Sequence record: PX104380.1
DNA length: 64,000 nt
DNA from: a phage
Direction: 5' to 3' (one strand)
Below, piece after piece: positions 1-63,305 of this stretch. A program made the position numbers and the translations under genes. The notes under the pieces were generated by a model. That model searched no databases. It saw only the letters and a list, made by a program, of their open reading frames with translations, and was not told the origin of the DNA. How positions within the stretch are numbered: position 1 is the stretch's first letter; every line of letters starts with the position of its first letter.

Positions 1-1
1 T

Positions 2-1562
<1,561 letters not shown>

Positions 1563-1568
1563 TTTTTG

Positions 1569-1576
1569 AATAAATA
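1569..1576 (+). promoter_or_regulatory. Late-promoter-like box AATAAATA upstream of holin t (one mismatch to T4 late consensus TATAAATA)
   Basis: motif 19 nt upstream of t ATG, followed by AAGGAGG SD. Confidence 0.35.
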
Positions 1577-1594
1577 TCCTTAAAAGGAGGGTCT

Positions 1595-2251
1595 ATGGCA
1601 GCACCTAGAATATCATTTTCGCCCTCTGATATTCTATTTGGTGTTCTAGATCGCTTGTTCAAAGATAACGCTACCGGGAAAGTTCTTGCTTCCCGGGTAG
1701 CTGTCGTAATTCTTTTGTTTATGATGGCGATTGTTTGGTATAGGGGAGATAGTTTCTTTGAGTACTATAAGCAATCAAAGTATGAAACATACAGTGAAAT
1801 TATTGAAAAGGAAAGAAATGCACGCTTTGAATCTGTCGCCCTGGAACAACTCCAGATAGTTCACATATCATCTGAGGCAGACTTTAGTGCGGTGTATTCT
1901 TTCCGCCCTAAAAACTTAAACTATTTTGTCGATATTATAGCATATGAAGGAAAATTACCTTCAACAATAAGTGAAAAATCACTTGGAGGATATCCTGTTG
2001 ATAAAACTATGGATGAATATGCAGTTCATTTAAATGGACGTCATTATTATTCCAACTCAAAATTTGCTTTTTTACCAACTAAAAAGCCTACTCCCGAAAT
2101 AAACTACATATACAGTTGTCCATATTTTAATTTGGATAATATCTATGCTGGAACGATAACCATGTACTGGTATAGAAATGATCATATAAGTAATGACCGC
2201 CTTGAATCAATATGCGCCCAGGCGGCCAGAATATTAGGAAGGGCTAAATAA
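1595..2251 (+). CDS. t: Holin t
   Basis: 218 aa; N-terminus MAAPRISFSPSDILFGVLDRLFKDNATGKVLASRVAVVILLFMMAIVWY matches remembered T4 holin with one TM segment and large periplasmic domain. Confidence 0.95.
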   Translation: MAAPRISFSPSDILFGVLDRLFKDNATGKVLASRVAVVILLFMMAIVWYRGDSFFEYYKQSKYETYSEIIEKERNARFESVALEQLQIVHISSEADFSAVYSFRPKNLNYFVDIIAYEGKLPSTISEKSLGGYPVDKTMDEYAVHLNGRHYYSNSKFAFLPTKKPTPEINYIYSCPYFNLDNIYAGTITMYWYRNDHISNDRLESICAQAARILGRAK

Positions 2252-55606: not shown

Positions 55607-55849
55607 TTATTCCTTAATTCCTAGTACTTGTTTAAAAGTCTCGTCGTAATCAAGACTTTGACCCGTTTGTTCTTTATGTTTGTATATAATATCACTTACT
55701 TCTGATAGCATATTTTTATATGAACGAGTTAAAGCAGATTTAAGCACGCTGTATCTATCAGGAAATTTACCATGTTCATTATAATAAGCTATTGCTAATT
55801 CACGGACTGCCTTTTCAGCAGCCTCCATATATTCTTTACGCTTGGTCAT
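55607..55849 (-). CDS. Hypothetical protein (80 aa)
   Basis: ORF. Confidence 0.5.
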
Positions 55850-55851
55850 TT

Positions 55852-56241
55852 TTAATCCAAAATATTATTAGGCATTGGTTGAACACTCACAAGTTCTTTA
55901 AAGAACTCAGTAGAATCAGGCAATTTAACCATTTCCGGAGCATGCTTACTGAATTTATGTTTACATTGACGGCATTTATATTCAAGCTCTGGTTTACGCC
56001 AGTTAATCAATTGAACTTGTTCAGTACCGCATTCAGGGCAATTAGGAACATTTTTAGAAGCTCTTTCACGTCGTTCAACCATAACCATAATGGCATCCCA
56101 AGCAGGAGGTTTAAAGTCTAAATCGTCACAACCATGAATCTTTCCACGCATTTCCAAATCGTCTTCTTCACCAGCCATAATAATTTTAATTAGACTAGAA
56201 TTACTTGAAGCTGCAATATCTTCTAATAAACGCTTTTTCAT
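55852..56241 (-). CDS. Zinc-ribbon protein (129 aa)
   Basis: CPECGTEQ...CRQCKH. Confidence 0.55.
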
Positions 56242-57164
56242 TTCAGTACCTCAATAGCATCACGTAAACCATTTGCTTTGGCGGTTAAAGCCTTAAGAAC
56301 TTTAGTATGCTCTTCAATTTGTTTTTCAACTTCAATCAAACGAGCATTGAGATATTCGCGTTCTTCTTTCATAGTATCATTTCCATGATTGGATTTTGGT
56401 GTAGGTTTAAATTCACTAGGGTCCTTTAACTTAATAACAAATTTAGTTTCAAACAGTGAAAGACCATAATTCGTATTATCATCAAAGGATTTAACTACAT
56501 CCATATTAGATAATAACTCATGCAAATTATAAGACAAAGAACTAATAGTTTCATTGTGTTTATTAGCTTCGCGTGGTTTCATATACGGAAGATTTTTATA
56601 TATCTCATGCGGAGCGCAAACGATAATTGACAATTCAAATTGTCCATTCTGGGACGATGGAATGAATTTAGCCGTAACCCAGTCTTTTACATTCACATTA
56701 ATAGTACGGTTATCACCATGACAAAACAGTCTACGAGAATGCTTAAAAAGCATATTCACGTTATTATTGAATTCGTGTGAAAATTCACTAGCAAATTTTT
56801 CTTTACTATCTTTAGAAAACCATTCTTCTAAATAAGTTCTTTTCACGTCATTAATAATATTAAATGTAACAACACTAGCATTTGATACATTAGTCTTAAT
56901 GTAGCTTGGATACATAAATTTTTTAACATTATTAACAGCTATCACAGAAGATAGTAATCGGGAACGTTTGAACCACTCGAGCAAAGAACCAAGAGAATGT
57001 GAATACGCATTTTGTGTATCTTTACAAATATGGTTTTCCCATCCAATATAGTCTAAAAAATCACGAAGAATATTATTGATTACTGCTCTGTGTCCGATCT
57101 GATAATTACGATGTTTAGTAATAAGACTGTCAAAATAATCAATATAATGTTTACGAGTTTTCAT
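56238..57164 (-). CDS. Coiled-coil paralog family member 1 (308 aa)
   Basis: C-terminal heptad-like region [42 protein letters not shown]. Confidence 0.6.
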   Translation of the reverse strand: MKTRKHYIDYFDSLITKHRNYQIGHRAVINNILRDFLDYIGWENHICKDTQNAYSHSLGSLLEWFKRSRLLSSVIAVNNVKKFMYPSYIKTNVSNASVVTFNIINDVKRTYLEEWFSKDSKEKFASEFSHEFNNNVNMLFKHSRRLFCHGDNRTINVNVKDWVTAKFIPSSQNGQFELSIIVCAPHEIYKNLPYMKPREANKHNETISSLSYNLHELLSNMDVVKSFDDNTNYGLSLFETKFVIKLKDPSEFKPTPKSNHGNDTMKEEREYLNARLIEVEKQIEEHTKVLKALTAKANGLRDAIEVLK

Positions 57165-57216
57165 GTTCTTCTCACTTGGTTAATGATTTATACTCCGAGC
57201 CATCCTTGGCTTTAAA

Positions 57217-58218
57217 TTACTTAATTAACTGTAAAGCCTGTTCTAAACGATCAAGACGATTAACAGATTCTTCCCAAATCCTTTTAGCCTGCTCATATTC
57301 TTTCTGCGCTTTATTAGAAATTTCTAGAACTTCTTTATAAGCTTTTTCTAATGCAATAACTTCTGGACGAATTTCTACCGGTTCAGGTGAATCATCAAGA
57401 CATTCCATTAGTTCCTCAAGGGTAGTTTCTTCTTTAGGAGTATTCACAATTTCATCACATTTTTGTTGGTAAATTTCTTTACTAGTAGGTGAATAAGTAC
57501 ATTTCACTTCACGAAGACTAACTACAATTTTATATCCTTCCCAACCGCATATATTCTTAAAAGGATATGTATGAATATTTTCTACCGTTTCCATACAAAG
57601 TAATGCAGTCTCTAACTGATGAGTTGTATCACTAGCAATTGAGAAAAATTTATTAATATTCTTTTGATTAGCTTCTGGTGTAAAAAATTCATAATTCACA
57701 AAAATAGCTGCTTTATTTTTATCAAGTTCATATTCTTTTATGATAATCATATCAGAAGCCAAAGGATGAATTTGACGATAATCGCCATAACATAATTTAG
57801 AAGCTGATTTTAGAATTTGCTTCTTGAAAAGTCTAAAATTACTAATCCAACGACGAGTAAAAATATTCTCAGGGTCTTCTTTATTATTAAGATGATAAGA
57901 ATTAACATCACCGAACCAACTGTATCCTACTACATCTTTGGTTCGTTTAATTTCTTTCCCAAAATTACTAAGAATATCTTGATTAACTAAATATGAAAGA
58001 AGACGAGACCCTTTAAAGGTTTCCTTAATATCATCTTTATCTACACGACTAGAAATTTTATGAACTTCATGAATAAATTTGCTGGAAGAAACAATACTTG
58101 CATCAGTATTGTTGAGCCACTGATTGATAATAGAAAGAACACTATTCTGACTAGACATAGGTTTAACTTTATCATCAATAACACTATTGAATGATTTGAT
58201 ATATTCGTTACGAGTCAT
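57217..58218 (-). CDS. Coiled-coil paralog family member 2 (333 aa)
   Basis: start at ATG 58218 behind GGAG; shared motif FRLFKKQILKSASKL; C-terminal coiled coil. Confidence 0.6.
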   Translation of the reverse strand: MTRNEYIKSFNSVIDDKVKPMSSQNSVLSIINQWLNNTDASIVSSSKFIHEVHKISSRVDKDDIKETFKGSRLLSYLVNQDILSNFGKEIKRTKDVVGYSWFGDVNSYHLNNKEDPENIFTRRWISNFRLFKKQILKSASKLCYGDYRQIHPLASDMIIIKEYELDKNKAAIFVNYEFFTPEANQKNINKFFSIASDTTHQLETALLCMETVENIHTYPFKNICGWEGYKIVVSLREVKCTYSPTSKEIYQQKCDEIVNTPKEETTLEELMECLDDSPEPVEIRPEVIALEKAYKEVLEISNKAQKEYEQAKRIWEESVNRLDRLEQALQLIK

Positions 58219-58240
58219 ATTAATCTCCTCAGTAGAAAGT

Positions 58241-58297
58241 AAGAACATTATACCACATCCTTGTGGCAAAGTAAACTAGTTCAGTGCATTTAGTGCG
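58241..58297 (-). promoter_or_regulatory. Early promoter
   Basis: GTTTAC (58271-58276), 18-bp spacer, TGGTATAAT (58247-58255). Confidence 0.55.
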
Positions 58298-59280
58298 TTG
58301 TTCAATTTAGAACGTTGCTTCGTGAGATTTTTTACTTTTTCTTGAGCTTTTTCTAGCATCTTTTCAGCTTCTAACACTTCATTAGTTGCTTTAACGAGTT
58401 CATCATCTACTGCCTTGATAGACTTCTCAATCGCATCCGCGTGCCATTTTTCAACAGGTTTAAGACTCGGATTTTCAACAGGAAGAAAATTCACTTTATT
58501 GAATTTCCATGCATCATTATTACCTGAACTATACATCCAAAATTTAGGATCGTTTGATGAGTAATTAGTTTGGTGTTCAGGTTTTTTCTCTTGTATAACT
58601 TCGTCCTTTCTCAAAAAATCGTATTTAAATGAAACGATCATATCAAGTTCATACGTTGTTGTGTCTAATTTAAATCGTTCAAAACGAGGTAAAATCTTAG
58701 ATTGAACAGCAGCAACAACATCCATATACTTAAATGCTTCTGTCAGCTGTGATTTAAGACATTCACAAATTGAAAGAGAATTTTTTGTATTAGGTTTAAA
58801 GCTAATTCGTGCAGTTCTATTATTTTCTTTTAATGGTCTTACTTCCATCTGAAGAGTATAACCATCAAATTTCAGGTTCTTTAAGTTAATGTCAGAACCT
58901 TTTAATCGACTAGCCGTCGACAAAATTTGCTTTAATTGTTTACGGAATAGAGCAATAAATCTCCATTCAATACGATAATGATTTGGATTGAAAAATCCAG
59001 ATGATAAATCGACCTTACTTTGACCAACGCCTTGAACAAATAAAGGATTTTTATAATCAATAGTTTTACAGAAATCGGTGAGCTGCTCACGAGCAGTCAT
59101 TTGTGTAATATACCCTGCTTCATTAAAATTACGCACCCATTCACTGCTATTCATATATTTAAAGTGAATGGAACTATTAACTTTATCAGGGTCTAAATTA
59201 TTTTGGCACAAAAATGTCATAACATCACGAGTATAGCTGGCATTACGAACCATATCTTCAATTTGAGAACGAGTTTTCAT
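58276..59280 (-). CDS. Coiled-coil paralog family member 3 (334 aa)
   Basis: shared motif FIALFRKQLKQILSTASRL; C-terminal coiled coil. Confidence 0.6.
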   Translation of the reverse strand: MKTRSQIEDMVRNASYTRDVMTFLCQNNLDPDKVNSSIHFKYMNSSEWVRNFNEAGYITQMTAREQLTDFCKTIDYKNPLFVQGVGQSKVDLSSGFFNPNHYRIEWRFIALFRKQLKQILSTASRLKGSDINLKNLKFDGYTLQMEVRPLKENNRTARISFKPNTKNSLSICECLKSQLTEAFKYMDVVAAVQSKILPRFERFKLDTTTYELDMIVSFKYDFLRKDEVIQEKKPEHQTNYSSNDPKFWMYSSGNNDAWKFNKVNFLPVENPSLKPVEKWHADAIEKSIKAVDDELVKATNEVLEAEKMLEKAQEKVKNLTKQRSKLNNALNALN

Positions 59281-59288
59281 GGTGTTCC

Positions 59289-60191
59289 TTAAGATTTAAG
59301 TAAATCAACAATTTTAATTAATTTTTCACGTTCAGATTTAGCTTTACTACTCAATCCGGATAGTCTAAAGATTTCATCGTCATACTGTTGAATAGAAATA
59401 TTTAGCTCTTCAATTTGCTTATTAAAATAATCAATTTGCTCAGAATGTTTTTCGTTACTGCGAACTGGTACAGGTTTTGTAGGCAATTTAGTTAAACTGG
59501 ATTCATCCGGGCGATAAATTAAAATACAACTTGAACCAATCGGGCATTTTGCACCAGATGAATATTCTAATGTTCCGGCTTCTTTTAAAACTTCAAAAGC
59601 TAAACAGAGATGATGCCCCATATTAACATAATCTGTAGAGCGAGCTCTGACGTAATAATCATCGCCGCGAATACTAAATTTAAAGCATTTAAGGTCTTCT
59701 GTATTATTGGTCTTAAAAATCATTTGTTTATCTAGACCTTTAGCTAATCGAGCGCCTAATGCTAATAATCGTCGTTGATTTTCCCACAAATCTGCGATCA
59801 TTTGGTCAAATGATAATTTCGGCATTAGTCGACCATAAAGGTCATATCCTTTATTATAATTACGAAGGATTTCACTCGCGTTAATACGAGACAATGCTCC
59901 AATTTTATTAAGGGCTTTCATAATGCGATTAGATAAACCCATTCCAGACCCGTTTGTTCGCTGCAAATGTTTTTCTAATCCAAATCCAATATCAACTTTA
60001 AACTTATCTAAAATTTCTGCATGAACATCTCTGTCAATAACATTCAAATCCAAAGTTGGGTTAAATCTATGAAAAAATTTATCTGGCTCTCCACGACGAA
60101 GTACAGTCCATTCATTCATTTTTTTATTAACTAAAGATTTAATTACTGTATTGACATTATTAATTACTACTGACATATTTTTCTCACTCAA
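59289..60191 (-). CDS. Coiled-coil paralog family member 4 (300 aa)
   Basis: shared motif LWENQRRLLALGARLAKGL; C-terminal coiled coil. Confidence 0.6.
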   Translation of the reverse strand: MSEKNMSVVINNVNTVIKSLVNKKMNEWTVLRRGEPDKFFHRFNPTLDLNVIDRDVHAEILDKFKVDIGFGLEKHLQRTNGSGMGLSNRIMKALNKIGALSRINASEILRNYNKGYDLYGRLMPKLSFDQMIADLWENQRRLLALGARLAKGLDKQMIFKTNNTEDLKCFKFSIRGDDYYVRARSTDYVNMGHHLCLAFEVLKEAGTLEYSSGAKCPIGSSCILIYRPDESSLTKLPTKPVPVRSNEKHSEQIDYFNKQIEELNISIQQYDDEIFRLSGLSSKAKSEREKLIKIVDLLKS

Positions 60192-60592
60192 TTTTCAATT
60201 TTACTAAATACACAGAATATGATGGAAAAGACTATATAAGCACCGCATACAGATTGAACTAATACCATTCCAAAGAACCAAACAATATTATCAAACAATG
60301 TCTGTTTTACGTCGAAAGGACGTAAACTTACAGTAATATTATCGCCTTTTTCTATTGATGAATACATCTCTGGTGAAATATATTCGCTAAATCTATAACC
60401 ATCATTCAGCTCATATACAGCAATAAACGATAAACTAGACCCCTTTCCTTGTGTTCCTGTAATAGTATTAACTACAGTAACATCATAATCTTTATAATGC
60501 ATATAATCATTAATTGCATAATAACCATATGCAATTACTATACATAAACAACATATCAATAAATTCAATCTTTTAATTATCAACTGTTTCAT
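60188..60592 (-). CDS. Membrane protein (134 aa)
   Basis: N-terminal and C-terminal TM segments. Confidence 0.55.
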   Translation of the reverse strand: MKQLIIKRLNLLICCLCIVIAYGYYAINDYMHYKDYDVTVVNTITGTQGKGSSLSFIAVYELNDGYRFSEYISPEMYSSIEKGDNITVSLRPFDVKQTLFDNIVWFFGMVLVQSVCGAYIVFSIIFCVFSKIEN

Positions 60593-60647
60593 AATAATCT
60601 CAATTAAAAGGGCTTAGAACCATTATACCATCCTTGGTATAAAGCGG

Positions 60648-61175
60648 TTATGCGAGTACCGTCTTTAACCGTTCTTCAAACTTCCGAAGAGTATTCTGGC
60701 GTTCAGCTCTTTGCTTTTTGTAAGTTTCAATACGCTCTGAAATGAGAGTGTATCGTTCATTTACTGATTCTTTCATAAAATCAGGAATTTCACGAGAAGC
60801 TTTAATCTCATCAAATTTATCAATAACAGCTTGCTCTTCAGCAATTAAGTTATCATACATCAAAATATCTTTCTTGATGAACTCAATATCTTCTTGAGTT
60901 ACACGAGATAACTTAGATGCTTTATCCTTTTTGTACTGTTCGTTAGTATCACGAGACCAGTGTAATGTACGATTTTTATTCGTATTTTTGTAAATTTCTA
61001 CGATACCAATCTCATCAATAATAACGATCCAATTCCAACGGGATTTGTAAATTTGTCCTCCATCAACTGTGATTTCACCTCCGATTGAGATGTCATTAAA
61101 GAACTTGCTTTGTGCTTCAGATTTAAATTTACCATCGTTGTAATTTACCAAGTTGAAAATATCTTTAGCGTTCAT
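60648..61175 (-). CDS. Hypothetical protein (175 aa)
   Basis: ORF behind conserved leader and early promoter. Confidence 0.55.
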   Translation of the reverse strand: MNAKDIFNLVNYNDGKFKSEAQSKFFNDISIGGEITVDGGQIYKSRWNWIVIIDEIGIVEIYKNTNKNRTLHWSRDTNEQYKKDKASKLSRVTQEDIEFIKKDILMYDNLIAEEQAVIDKFDEIKASREIPDFMKESVNERYTLISERIETYKKQRAERQNTLRKFEERLKTVLA

Positions 61176-61620: not shown

Positions 61621-62340
61621 TTAGGATTCTTCTAAATGTCTTTTCTGAAAAGTTGATACCATACTACGATACGGTTCATTTGGATACCCGTGTTTTATAG
61701 CTTCCTTTGTAAATTTTCTCCATCCATATTTAGTTTCTTTCCAAAGCTCGAATAATTCATCTTCATACTGCCATATAGTTAAATGAGAACGCTTTGCAGC
61801 TTTAATTCCATTAATATGCTTTTCTTTTACTACAGGATTGCTTAGTTTCTTTTTAATAATATTACTAACTTTTCTAACAAAAACTGGGTCCTTATATCGT
61901 TGCGAAGTTTTTATTGAAGTGTTTAATTTAGCTTCCGGTGTGGATGTGACCTCTTTCATCTTTTTCTTCATATGCTGTATATGATTAGGATTTTTCCATA
62001 AATTTATAGAATGCTTTTTGCATTTTATCCTAGTTTCATCTGCAACCTTTCCTCCTTCACCTCCGTATGACAGGTTAACACAGTTTTTTCCATATTTCAA
62101 TTTACCTGCCATGATATATAATATTTCAGCTTGTACCATTTTATCATAATTATCAAAAACTTCTAAAACCGTTTTTGATAATATGTGGTCATTTGACACT
62201 TTTACACGTTCTATATAATTTCCACTACCAACATACGAATCATTGATGTTATTAGTTATATGTCGACCATAATAGTATTTCTTAATACCTGTCTTTAAAT
62301 TTAATATTTCAGTTTTATAGATAGTAAAATATTTTTTCAT
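61621..62340 (-). CDS. GIY-YIG (Seg-like) homing endonuclease candidate
   Basis: 239 aa; N-terminal YFTIYKTEILN...YYYGRH...YVGSG; C-terminal module shared with ORFs at 24831 and 40597. Confidence 0.6.
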   Translation of the reverse strand: MKKYFTIYKTEILNLKTGIKKYYYGRHITNNINDSYVGSGNYIERVKVSNDHILSKTVLEVFDNYDKMVQAEILYIMAGKLKYGKNCVNLSYGGEGGKVADETRIKCKKHSINLWKNPNHIQHMKKKMKEVTSTPEAKLNTSIKTSQRYKDPVFVRKVSNIIKKKLSNPVVKEKHINGIKAAKRSHLTIWQYEDELFELWKETKYGWRKFTKEAIKHGYPNEPYRSMVSTFQKRHLEES

Positions 62341-63305
62341 TTTAATAATACCGTTTCAGCAATTTCTTCCCAATGATTTTTGTCGGTCATAATAAAGTCA
62401 GCAAGATAAAGAGCAGTACGCAGTGAAACATTGCGTAAACGATTAACATTGACTTTCATCCATGATAATGCTTTATAAGTTTCTTCATCAGAAAGACCGC
62501 GCTTTTGCATCATGTCAGTTGAAAGAATAACATCTTCAACCCTGACCATAATTTCTTCATTAGTGTGAACACCCAAATCCAAATAAACTGAGCGGGACAC
62601 TAATGCTTGTAAATGTGGAGCAAGTTTAGTACCACGGTCTAATTCGCGGTCAATGTCAACGTTTGTGATAAAAACAATCGTTCCTTTAAATTCAAACTCA
62701 CGCTCAATGCCTTTTTCTTCTAAGTAAGAAGATGCGGTGCTCCAGCAGACTTTACGGGTCTCTCCAGTGTCCAGAGCAGCTTTCAGAAGATTAAGAATGT
62801 CCATATCAGAGAAAACATCCACATCATCAATCAAAAGGACAGAATTCTCTTCACGATTATTCCAAAGCTGTTCATAAAGACCGATACCAGAGATTTTACC
62901 ATTAATGCTTTTATACTCAATGTATCCAATATCATTTGCTTTATTTAAAGCTTTATCTAAAGAATACGTTTTACCAATACCCGCCGCGCCAGAGATAATT
63001 AATGAACGAATGTTTCCGTTAATAATACCATTCGTCATCATTCCCATAACATTAAATCTTTTATTAATGCGGGTTTTCATATCTTCATACGATTCTTTAA
63101 CTTCTTCAACTTTTACACCATCATATGAAATGTCTGATTTGTAAACCCAAACACCGCGACGTTTACCGTCAATTTCAACAAAAACTTTACCATCTCCTTG
63201 TGCATCTACTGGAGCATTATCAGGGAACCACTCACCTAAGAGTTCAAAGGTTCCAGAGATTTCTTTGCCAAAGTAAATACCCTTATTGATAGTTACAGTT
63301 TTCAT
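62337..63305 (-). CDS. P-loop NTPase (AAA-like)
   Basis: 322 aa from ATG 63305; Walker A GAAGIGKT, Walker B LLIDDVD; track extension reads through a terminator hairpin. Confidence 0.55.
   Translation of the reverse strand: MKTVTINKGIYFGKEISGTFELLGEWFPDNAPVDAQGDGKVFVEIDGKRRGVWVYKSDISYDGVKVEEVKESYEDMKTRINKRFNVMGMMTNGIINGNIRSLIISGAAGIGKTYSLDKALNKANDIGYIEYKSINGKISGIGLYEQLWNNREENSVLLIDDVDVFSDMDILNLLKAALDTGETRKVCWSTASSYLEEKGIEREFEFKGTIVFITNVDIDRELDRGTKLAPHLQALVSRSVYLDLGVHTNEEIMVRVEDVILSTDMMQKRGLSDEETYKALSWMKVNVNRLRNVSLRTALYLADFIMTDKNHWEEIAETVLLK

Follow-up and report, generated by a model that had tools for sequence, protein, structure and literature searches.

The DNA analysed here is a stretch of 64,000 nucleotides (nt) from a phage (sequence record PX104380.1), hereafter the window, which belongs to a Tequatrovirus (T4-like) genome, is AT-rich (G+C of about 33-36%) and carries nearly all of its genes on the (-) strand. 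Four consecutive open reading frames (ORFs) on that strand, annotated nrdC.3, nrdC.4, nrdC.5 and nrdC.6 in the relatives RB51, T4 and RB14, are interpreted here, with a confidence that differs between members, as strongly diverged tandem paralogues of a family specific to T4-like phages (Straboviridae). They lie in a region (55800-60700) that shares 95-97% identity with hundreds of Tequatrovirus genomes, and their order in the window, nrdC.6-nrdC.5-nrdC.4-nrdC.3, matches that of T4, RB14 and RB51. The array is flanked by nrdC.2 and nrdC.7; nrdC.10 lies upstream of it, and the genes for glutaredoxin (nrdC) and endonuclease VII (49) lie downstream. An exact-sequence look-up in the protein collection returned none of the four window proteins.

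The gene nrdC.3 (56238..57164, (-)) encodes 308 amino acids (aa) beginning MKTRKHY, has annotated orthologues and matches phrog_1435 at 4.6e-100. The hub of the family is nrdC.4 (57217..58218, (-)), with 333 aa beginning MTRNEY and matches to phrog_1435 (5.3e-166) and PF26897 (Phage_T4_Y04OP). Its start is the ATG at 58218, with GAGGAG upstream; a longer ORF from a TTG was rejected, since it would span the promoter-like site GTTTACTTTGCCACAAGGATGTGGTATAAT (58247..58275, (-)), which lies directly upstream of nrdC.4 and is followed by GAGGAG and the ATG. This site is a consensus match only, to a sigma-70 promoter of the T4 early type (GTTTACT-17-TATAAT with a TG extension, 10/12 matches). Next, nrdC.5 (58276..59280, (-)) encodes 334 aa beginning MKTRSQ and matches Pfam DUF7235 (PF23882) with 393.6 bits against a cut-off of 30, over model positions 1-307 of 307. 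The most divergent of the four, nrdC.6 (59289..60176, (-)), encodes 295 aa beginning MSVVINN and matches phrog_2257 (1.1e-152) and PF26899 (Phage_T4_Y05B); its ATG at 60176 was preferred to a TTG at 60191, given the GAGTGAG upstream and the length of its homologues (295-296 aa). A preliminary description, made from the letters alone, had placed here four consecutive minus-strand genes of 300-334 aa with MKTR-like starts, ending at 60191. The ORFs are indeed there and, compared with T4 as that description had proposed, are nrdC.3-nrdC.6 of T4-like phages; nrdC.3, nrdC.4 and nrdC.5 have the expected lengths and begin M(K)TR, whereas nrdC.6 has neither the length nor the start, and the end coordinate was 15 nt too far.

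Conventional searches recover only part of the relationship between these genes. The matches of nrdC.3 and nrdC.4 to phrog_1435 both run end to end, and the two proteins also share PF26897, while Pfam and PHROGs keep nrdC.5 (DUF7235) and nrdC.6 (PF26899, phrog_2257) as separate families. Precomputed assignments place PF26897 on all nrdC.4 homologues and PF26899 on all nrdC.6 homologues, and nrdC.3, nrdC.4 and nrdC.6 gave no Pfam match to DUF7235, falling below its threshold. By pairwise BLAST, nrdC.3-nrdC.4 was the sole pair detected (24% identity over 266 aa, E 0.007), the other five of the six being non-significant.

Similarity is significant once profiles are used. We built family profiles from database homologues and compared them by hhalign, with column-shuffled and reversed profiles as controls. 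The nrdC.3 and nrdC.4 profiles aligned over 225 columns (probability 98.2%, E 3.9e-14, z-score (z) 30.6), and the paralogy of these two genes is, at the level of sequence, certain. The nrdC.5 profile aligned with that of nrdC.4 over 152 columns of the globular part (66%, E 5.5e-5, z 14.5). For nrdC.6, the match to nrdC.3 covered 57 columns of the tail only (24.5%, E 8e-4, z 4.8). It was also compared with a combined profile of nrdC.3, nrdC.4, nrdC.5 and three single-copy relatives, from which all tails had been removed and the nrdC.6-like Kanagawavirus sequence IME523_335 had been excluded. Without its tail, nrdC.6 matched this profile with a probability of 88.4% (E 2.8e-6, score 47 vs 11.1 ± 1.7 for the shuffles, z 21), and the profile of nrdC.3, nrdC.4 and nrdC.5 alone with 50.5% (z 10). 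An initially strong nrdC.4-nrdC.6 score (95%, E 2e-8) was withdrawn as an artefact of a contaminated nrdC.4 profile: a 331-aa protein of Mosigvirus p000v, assigned to nrdC.4 by position, is actually a divergent nrdC.6 (33% identity, E 9e-33). No relation to the family was found for nrdC.2, nrdC.7 or nrdC.8, the last of these checked by hhalign.

The preliminary description had also pointed to an internal motif common to the four genes. The motif is real, with significance that emerges only through profiles, and profile-profile comparison with column-shuffle controls showed it to be the core of a block that is conserved and collinear and extends over about 80 residues. In nrdC.4, where the block contains the motif, it spans residues ~63-155 (KGSRLLSYLVNQDILSNFGK ... 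WISNFRLFKKQILKSASKLCYGDYRQ; 57754..58032, (-)) and is collinear with nrdC.3, nrdC.5, nrdC.6 and the single-copy relatives. The hhalign alignment with nrdC.4 places it at residues ~61-156 of nrdC.3 (LLEWFKRSRLLSSVIAVNNVKKF ... FNNNVNMLFKHSRRLFCHGDNRT; 56697..56984, (-)) and at residues ~47-130 of nrdC.5 (...GYITQMTAREQLTDFCK ... WRFIALFRKQLKQILSTASRL; 58891..59142, (-)), where it is nearly invariant among orthologues. In nrdC.6 it was located by alignment to the tail-less superfamily profile, at residues 84-157 (RIMKALNKIGALSRINASEILRNYNKG ... LWENQRRLLALGARLAKGLDKQ; 59706..59927, (-)); with IME523_335 included in that profile the N-terminal part of nrdC.6 matched with a probability of 93.0% (E 3.5e-7), and without it a closely similar range was aligned. 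The aligned stretch of nrdC.6 comprises exactly the motif described earlier and, just before it, the 'ALSRINASEILRNYNKG' helix. A joint alignment of nrdC.3, nrdC.4, nrdC.5 and the single-copy relatives shows the collinear blocks K-SR-L-S...L..FG and F...F..N....L..A.KL..GD.R, a 'MDVV' helix and a terminal L..A(I/L)..LK.

All four proteins end in a helix of 46-60 residues with a significant heptad pattern, as the preliminary description had proposed. For the last 49 residues of each protein in the best register, the fraction of Leu, Ile, Val, Met or Ala (LIVMA) at positions a and d was 0.71-0.93, against 0.14-0.23 elsewhere, a contrast reached by 0-22 of 2000 shuffles. The helix comprises residues 263-308 of nrdC.3 (56241..56378, (-); 0.79 vs 0.20, 1/2000 shuffles), where orthologues have no indels, residues 285-333 of nrdC.4 (57220..57366, (-); 0.71 vs 0.23, 22/2000), residues 275-334 of nrdC.5 (58279..58458, (-); 0.93 vs 0.17, 0/2000) and residues 246-295 of nrdC.6 (59292..59441, (-); 0.71 vs 0.14, 5/2000). 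AlphaFold models show it as one uninterrupted long C-terminal helix in both nrdC.4 (285-332) and nrdC.5 (275-333). It is predicted to be an oligomerising coiled coil. A charged helical tail (…ERIETYKKQRAERQNTLRKFEERLKTVLA) is also present in nrdC.8 (175 aa, 60648-61175 (-)). In two metagenomic proteins, P0231 (173 aa) and P0236 (157 aa), the C-terminal tail of nrdC.5 is joined to an unrelated N-terminal sequence, the tail of P0231 being identical to that of nrdC.5 in the window; both may be chimeras of the assembly or additional fusions by deletion.

The AlphaFold2 model of nrdC.4 has a predicted local distance difference test (pLDDT) score of 83.9 and consists of four parts: a helical N-terminal domain (1-84); an alpha/beta domain (88-235) that holds a long helix, two hairpins and the helices of the conserved motif (119-148); an acidic linker predicted with low confidence; and the lone C-terminal helix. 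The core begins with the helices 'SRLLS..IL..FGK' and 'F..N....L..A.KL..GD.R'. Searched against BFVD with Foldseek, this model retrieved nrdC.3 (E 9e-8), nrdC.6 of phage JS10 (E 1.5e-5, probability 1.0) and uncharacterised Straboviridae proteins of 280-374 aa from phages of Acinetobacter, Klebsiella, Pectobacterium, Erwinia, Serratia and Yersinia, with unrelated proteins appearing at E > 0.01 only; a Foldseek search of the PDB gave no match. Among Tequatrovirus orthologues the core and the tail are the most conserved parts, the tail never having indels, and the N-terminal domain and linker are the most variable. The predicted layout of nrdC.4, which the other members probably share, is thus an N-terminal helical domain, an alpha/beta core, a variable, indel-rich linker and an amphipathic heptad helix of ~46-60 residues.

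To follow the family beyond Tequatrovirus, the syntenic region between nrdC.10 and nrdC was retrieved from other genera. The number of copies is four in Tequatrovirus and three (nrdC.4, nrdC.6 and a shortened nrdC.5) in Dhakavirus and in the related loci that were retrieved along with it. Mosigvirus has two, of the nrdC.3 and nrdC.6 types, and lacks nrdC.4 and nrdC.5. Kanagawavirus, Jiaodavirus, Winklervirus and Moonvirus each have one gene of 324-347 aa at the same position, whose product has a tail of this kind. In Winklervirus, the protein aligns with nrdC.4 over the N-terminal 198 columns (50%) and with nrdC.5 over the C-terminal 138 columns (95.6%, E 1.2e-8). Acinetobacter phage Acj61 has two genes (304 and 330 aa) between nrdC.10 and nrdC, whose products are linked to the family by Foldseek only, hhalign giving no link. 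A copy number that varies from one to four at the same genomic position across related genera is what a tandem expansion would be expected to leave. The family is anchored at one position across at least six Tevenvirinae genera, and Foldseek extends it to phages of Acinetobacter, Serratia and Yersinia.

Within the phage collection, records were found for nrdC.3 (658), nrdC.4 (556), nrdC.5 (583) and nrdC.6 (742), with at least 80% of the gene covered in 652 records for nrdC.3, 547 for nrdC.4 and 689 for nrdC.6. The nrdC.5 branch is very narrow, with 13 matches in an exhaustive profile search of 1.84 billion representative proteins. Upstream of the single-copy gene, Kanagawavirus, Jiaodavirus, Winklervirus and Moonvirus carry a conserved gene of 256-262 aa with 66-77% identity between genera (loci L023 11994-12764, L024 12287-13075, L025 12262-13035 and L027 11552-12340), which adjoins the single-copy gene in three genera and is separated from it by two small ORFs in Kanagawavirus. 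It has no coiled-coil tail, is absent from the window and is unrelated to the family; it was rejected as a member, as was Acj61 p118, for which no relation was found either.

That the four genes form one family has to be weighed against several results that count the other way. The clean nrdC.6-nrdC.4 comparison was noise (0.5%, E 0.12, z 1.5, 100 columns), the direct nrdC.5-nrdC.6 comparison was likewise at noise level, and nrdC.5 and nrdC.6 belong to the family at moderate profile probability only (50-88%). The AlphaFold model of nrdC.5 has a pLDDT of 42.5, with only the tail helix confident, because the family is shallow (14 aligned sequences, all at least 83% identical to the query except one at 43%); consequently, the common fold is modelled for nrdC.4 alone and is read for the others from BFVD matches, whose template modelling (TM) scores are modest (0.30-0.42 for the nrdC.3 and nrdC.6 models, 0.30-0.48 across matches). 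It could be argued from the five non-significant BLAST pairs, the three separate Pfam and PHROGs families, the two shuffle-level hhalign scores and the withdrawn artefact that nrdC.5 and nrdC.6 resemble the others by convergence, through coiled-coil composition and a short chance motif, and are adjacent by coincidence. We consider this improbable, as tail-less nrdC.6 still matches the combined profile (z 10-21), the nrdC.5-nrdC.4 match extends over 152 globular columns, a single-copy relative matches nrdC.4 and nrdC.5 in different, collinear parts, Foldseek connects nrdC.4 to nrdC.6, and all four genes have the same motif and order of secondary-structure elements, the latter recovered even in the low-confidence nrdC.5 model, together with a common size, position and tail. 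It is therefore probable, with moderate confidence, that nrdC.5 and nrdC.6 belong to the same very diverged family as nrdC.3 and nrdC.4. The tandem-duplicated, diverging family of the preliminary description is supported at the profile and structure level, clearly for nrdC.3/nrdC.4 and moderately for nrdC.5/nrdC.6, and that description as a whole is partly confirmed and largely correct.

Pairwise ratios of nonsynonymous to synonymous substitution (dN/dS) within Tequatrovirus, a check that had been proposed at the outset, were 0.17-0.36 for nrdC.3, 0.14-0.24 for nrdC.4, 0.12-0.24 for nrdC.5 and 0.06-0.15 for nrdC.6, against 0-0.15 for the conserved neighbours 49, pin, nrdC, nrdC.1, nrdC.8 and nrdC.9; the mosaic genes nrdC.2 and nrdC.7 reached 0.20-0.24 in single comparisons. 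Gene-wide values for nrdC.3-nrdC.5 are thus several-fold above those of the neighbours, yet below 1. The gene nrdC.3 occurs in allele groups with 91-98%, ~60-61% and ~55% aa identity (the window compared with RB14 L005, L010 and L014). Since these alleles differ by a synonymous divergence (dS) of ~1 within genomes whose adjacent nrdC.4 and flanks differ by only ~0.2, allele exchange is the likely source of the variation. Nearby, nrdC.2 is itself mosaic, being 98-99% identical to RB14 and RB51, 82% to T4 and 65% to L014.

Several natural phages carry disrupted copies. In some, including T2, two ORFs (193 + 158 aa) take the place of nrdC.4, or the gene is matched piecewise (L014 5971-7003; T2 PV958097; BFVD A0A482N302 and A0A2Z5WKJ2), and both a 159.7-kb T4 variant (OL964745) and Ec_YwIITB1 have a fragmented nrdC.5. 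In the protein P0120 (L028 3570-4900, ENA contig PASO19-1 scaffold_6, 167 kb), nrdC.5 residues 145-266 are fused to nrdC.3 residues 134-308, and this phage has lost nrdC.4 and retains a 115-aa N-terminal stub of nrdC.5. Unequal crossing-over between paralogues was considered as the origin of the fusion and rejected: the junction joins the nrdC.5 linker to the nrdC.3 motif helix, which are non-homologous positions, so that the event is best described as an ordinary deletion.

Regarding function, the preliminary description had suggested host-interaction factors, and this receives direct support for one member. T4 nrdC.5 supplied in trans restores infection by a deletion phage on cells with ECOR17 dsr1, and it was called an early gene in the same study (Srikant 2022, PMC9391042). 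The nrdC.5 gene of the window (93% aa identity to that of T4, dS 0.22, same neighbours) is, by its sequence and setting, the orthologue of this T4 anti-Dsr1 gene (T4 NrdC.5, UniProt Y05A), and likewise sits between nrdC.6 and nrdC.4. The TPR sensor of Dsr1, shared with Avs7, is triggered by the phage major capsid protein (2026 preprint, PMC12803255). We found no later work on the mechanism of NrdC.5 in the literature library searched and no published phenotype for nrdC.3, nrdC.4 or nrdC.6. Sequence and profile searches of Pfam (beyond DUF7235), NCBIfam, PADLOC and the PDB gave no match to an enzyme, a defence protein or a characterised family, and the homology to a known enzyme family that would have spoken against the preliminary description was thus not found. 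Many GenBank genomes label nrdC.3-nrdC.6 (56238-60176) and nrdC.10 (62337-63305) 'thioredoxin'. There was no thioredoxin or glutaredoxin match in Pfam or NCBIfam at E up to 1 and no CxxC in the four translations; the label has no basis in the sequences and was carried over from the gene names nrdC.N.

Considering the known anti-Dsr1 activity of nrdC.5 and the paralogy of the array, nrdC.3, nrdC.4 and nrdC.6 are plausible immune-evasion candidates. The explanation that we favour, somewhat more probable than its alternatives combined, is that the array arose by tandem expansion and encodes early, oligomeric proteins that inhibit immune sensors of the host. The four non-enzymatic proteins would be made early in infection, a timing suggested by the promoter-like site upstream of nrdC.4 and by the early status of nrdC.5 reported by Srikant et al., and would bind and block host immune sensors before late structural proteins appear. 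The C-terminal helix would oligomerise the proteins as a coiled coil, giving avidity against oligomeric defence proteins, and the more variable N-terminal domain and linker would be the candidate region for target specificity. By occupying or locking Dsr1, which is a SIR2 NADase equipped with a TPR sensor, NrdC.5 would keep the late capsid protein from triggering depletion of nicotinamide adenine dinucleotide (NAD+), while the other three copies, with a putative anti-defence role of their own, would act likewise on other sensors or other Dsr1 variants.

Known phage systems offer partial parallels. DSAD1 of SPbeta-type phages is a non-enzymatic binder of the DSR2 sirtuin, a SIR2-NADase, and stops its activation by a virion protein; the logic proposed for the NrdC proteins would be the same, and no sequence or fold similarity between DSAD1 and these proteins was found. 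TifA (61.4), Dmd, AdfA (61.2), IPI and IPIII are likewise encoded by small to mid-size, non-essential T4 genes that cluster with other dispensable accessory genes and are easily deleted. Each neutralises one host defence, and their sequences are unrelated to the nrdC proteins. Among the T4 counter-defence sets compared, nrdC.3-nrdC.6 is the only one found to consist of four paralogues in tandem that have a coiled-coil tail in common. Rapid evolution and a lack of database matches make the counter-defence genes of phages difficult to detect.

Some of our data weigh against such a shared role. Experimental function is available for one of the four proteins only (nrdC.5), and the binding of NrdC.5 to Dsr1 is a proposal. 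The region shows no enrichment of promoter-like sites (27 found vs 30 expected). All four dN/dS values are well below 1, with nrdC.6 evolving hardly faster than its neighbours, and the raised values could reflect relaxed constraint instead of an arms race; nrdC.4, broken in T2 and other phages, may simply be dispensable. In the best-placed alternative, the genes are true paralogues but nrdC.5 alone is anti-defence, the others having different accessory roles (host takeover, regulation) or being decaying and functionless. It would fit the split or frameshifted nrdC.4 of several natural phages, the natural deletion that removes nrdC.4 and fuses nrdC.5 to nrdC.3, the lack of nrdC.4 and nrdC.5 in Mosigvirus, the raised dN/dS and the lack of published phenotypes for the other three. 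However, most of the 556-742 records per gene keep near-full-length matches, purifying selection has conserved the core and tail, the constraint on nrdC.6 equals that on many genes nearby, and a deeply dimorphic nrdC.3 kept by allele exchange is more typical of host-dependent selection. We regard this alternative as unlikely, though it deserves serious attention.

A quite improbable alternative is a decoy mechanism, in which the alpha/beta core, duplicated out of a virion module, would copy the fold of phage tail-terminator or tail-completion proteins, and four early soluble mimics, possibly assembled through their coiled coils, would pre-occupy the Avs- or Dsr-type pattern-recognition sensors (Dsr1/Avs7-type, Avs15-type) with which the host recognises conserved structural proteins of phages. 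If true, it would amount to a multi-copy mimicry shield against structure-sensing immunity. Yet tail terminators (lambda gpU, T5 p142, SPP1 gp17-like, DUF3168) share 3-14% identity with the nrdC proteins, have no Foldseek support and lack their extra N-terminal and coiled-coil parts, and nrdC.3-nrdC.6 lie outside the tail module, in an early accessory region on the (-) strand among non-structural genes (49 endonuclease VII, pin, nrdC).

Elsewhere in the window, the nrdC.4-nrdC.3 spacer (57165-57216 (-)) contains a small hairpin, GCCAAGGATGGCTCGG, which is rich in G+C and has no T-run, and a search of Rfam gave no match in the region, this spacer included. Between nrdC.9 and nrdC.10 lies an ORF (61621-62340 (-)) for a 239-aa seg-like homing endonuclease of the GIY-YIG type, which is also present in RB14 and RB51 (RB32ORF093c) and which T4 lacks at that position. 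The first 2000 nt of the window (1-2000) have a G+C content of 0.43 and a positive GC skew, against 0.31-0.37 and a negative skew in the remaining window; presumably, a late gene on the plus strand lies at this edge of the window.

The four genes themselves and the nrdC.5 phenotype were already known, so that the result is useful and unsurprising. What is new is the remote-homology link, drawn from profile comparisons, through which three families of the databases come together in one tandem array, the single-copy relatives of nrdC.3-nrdC.6 across T4-like phages, and three concrete, still putative, anti-defence candidates. For the databases, PF26897 (nrdC.3, nrdC.4), PF26899 (nrdC.6) and PHROGs 1435, 2351 and 2257, of which the window proteins are full-length members, are descriptive families without an assigned function, between which the databases draw no relationship; our comparisons suggest that they are branches of a single superfamily, remotely related by profiles to the DUF7235 family of NrdC.5. 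One clan would then take in three Pfam families, and the common 'thioredoxin' mislabel would be put right. For the phage, a validated anti-defence gene, nrdC.5, would be one of four remote paralogues that stand together in an array. This would make nrdC.3, nrdC.4 and nrdC.6 concrete candidate immune inhibitors in the best-studied phage, with a layout that suggests a variable recognition part and a conserved coiled-coil tail, which are experimentally separable.

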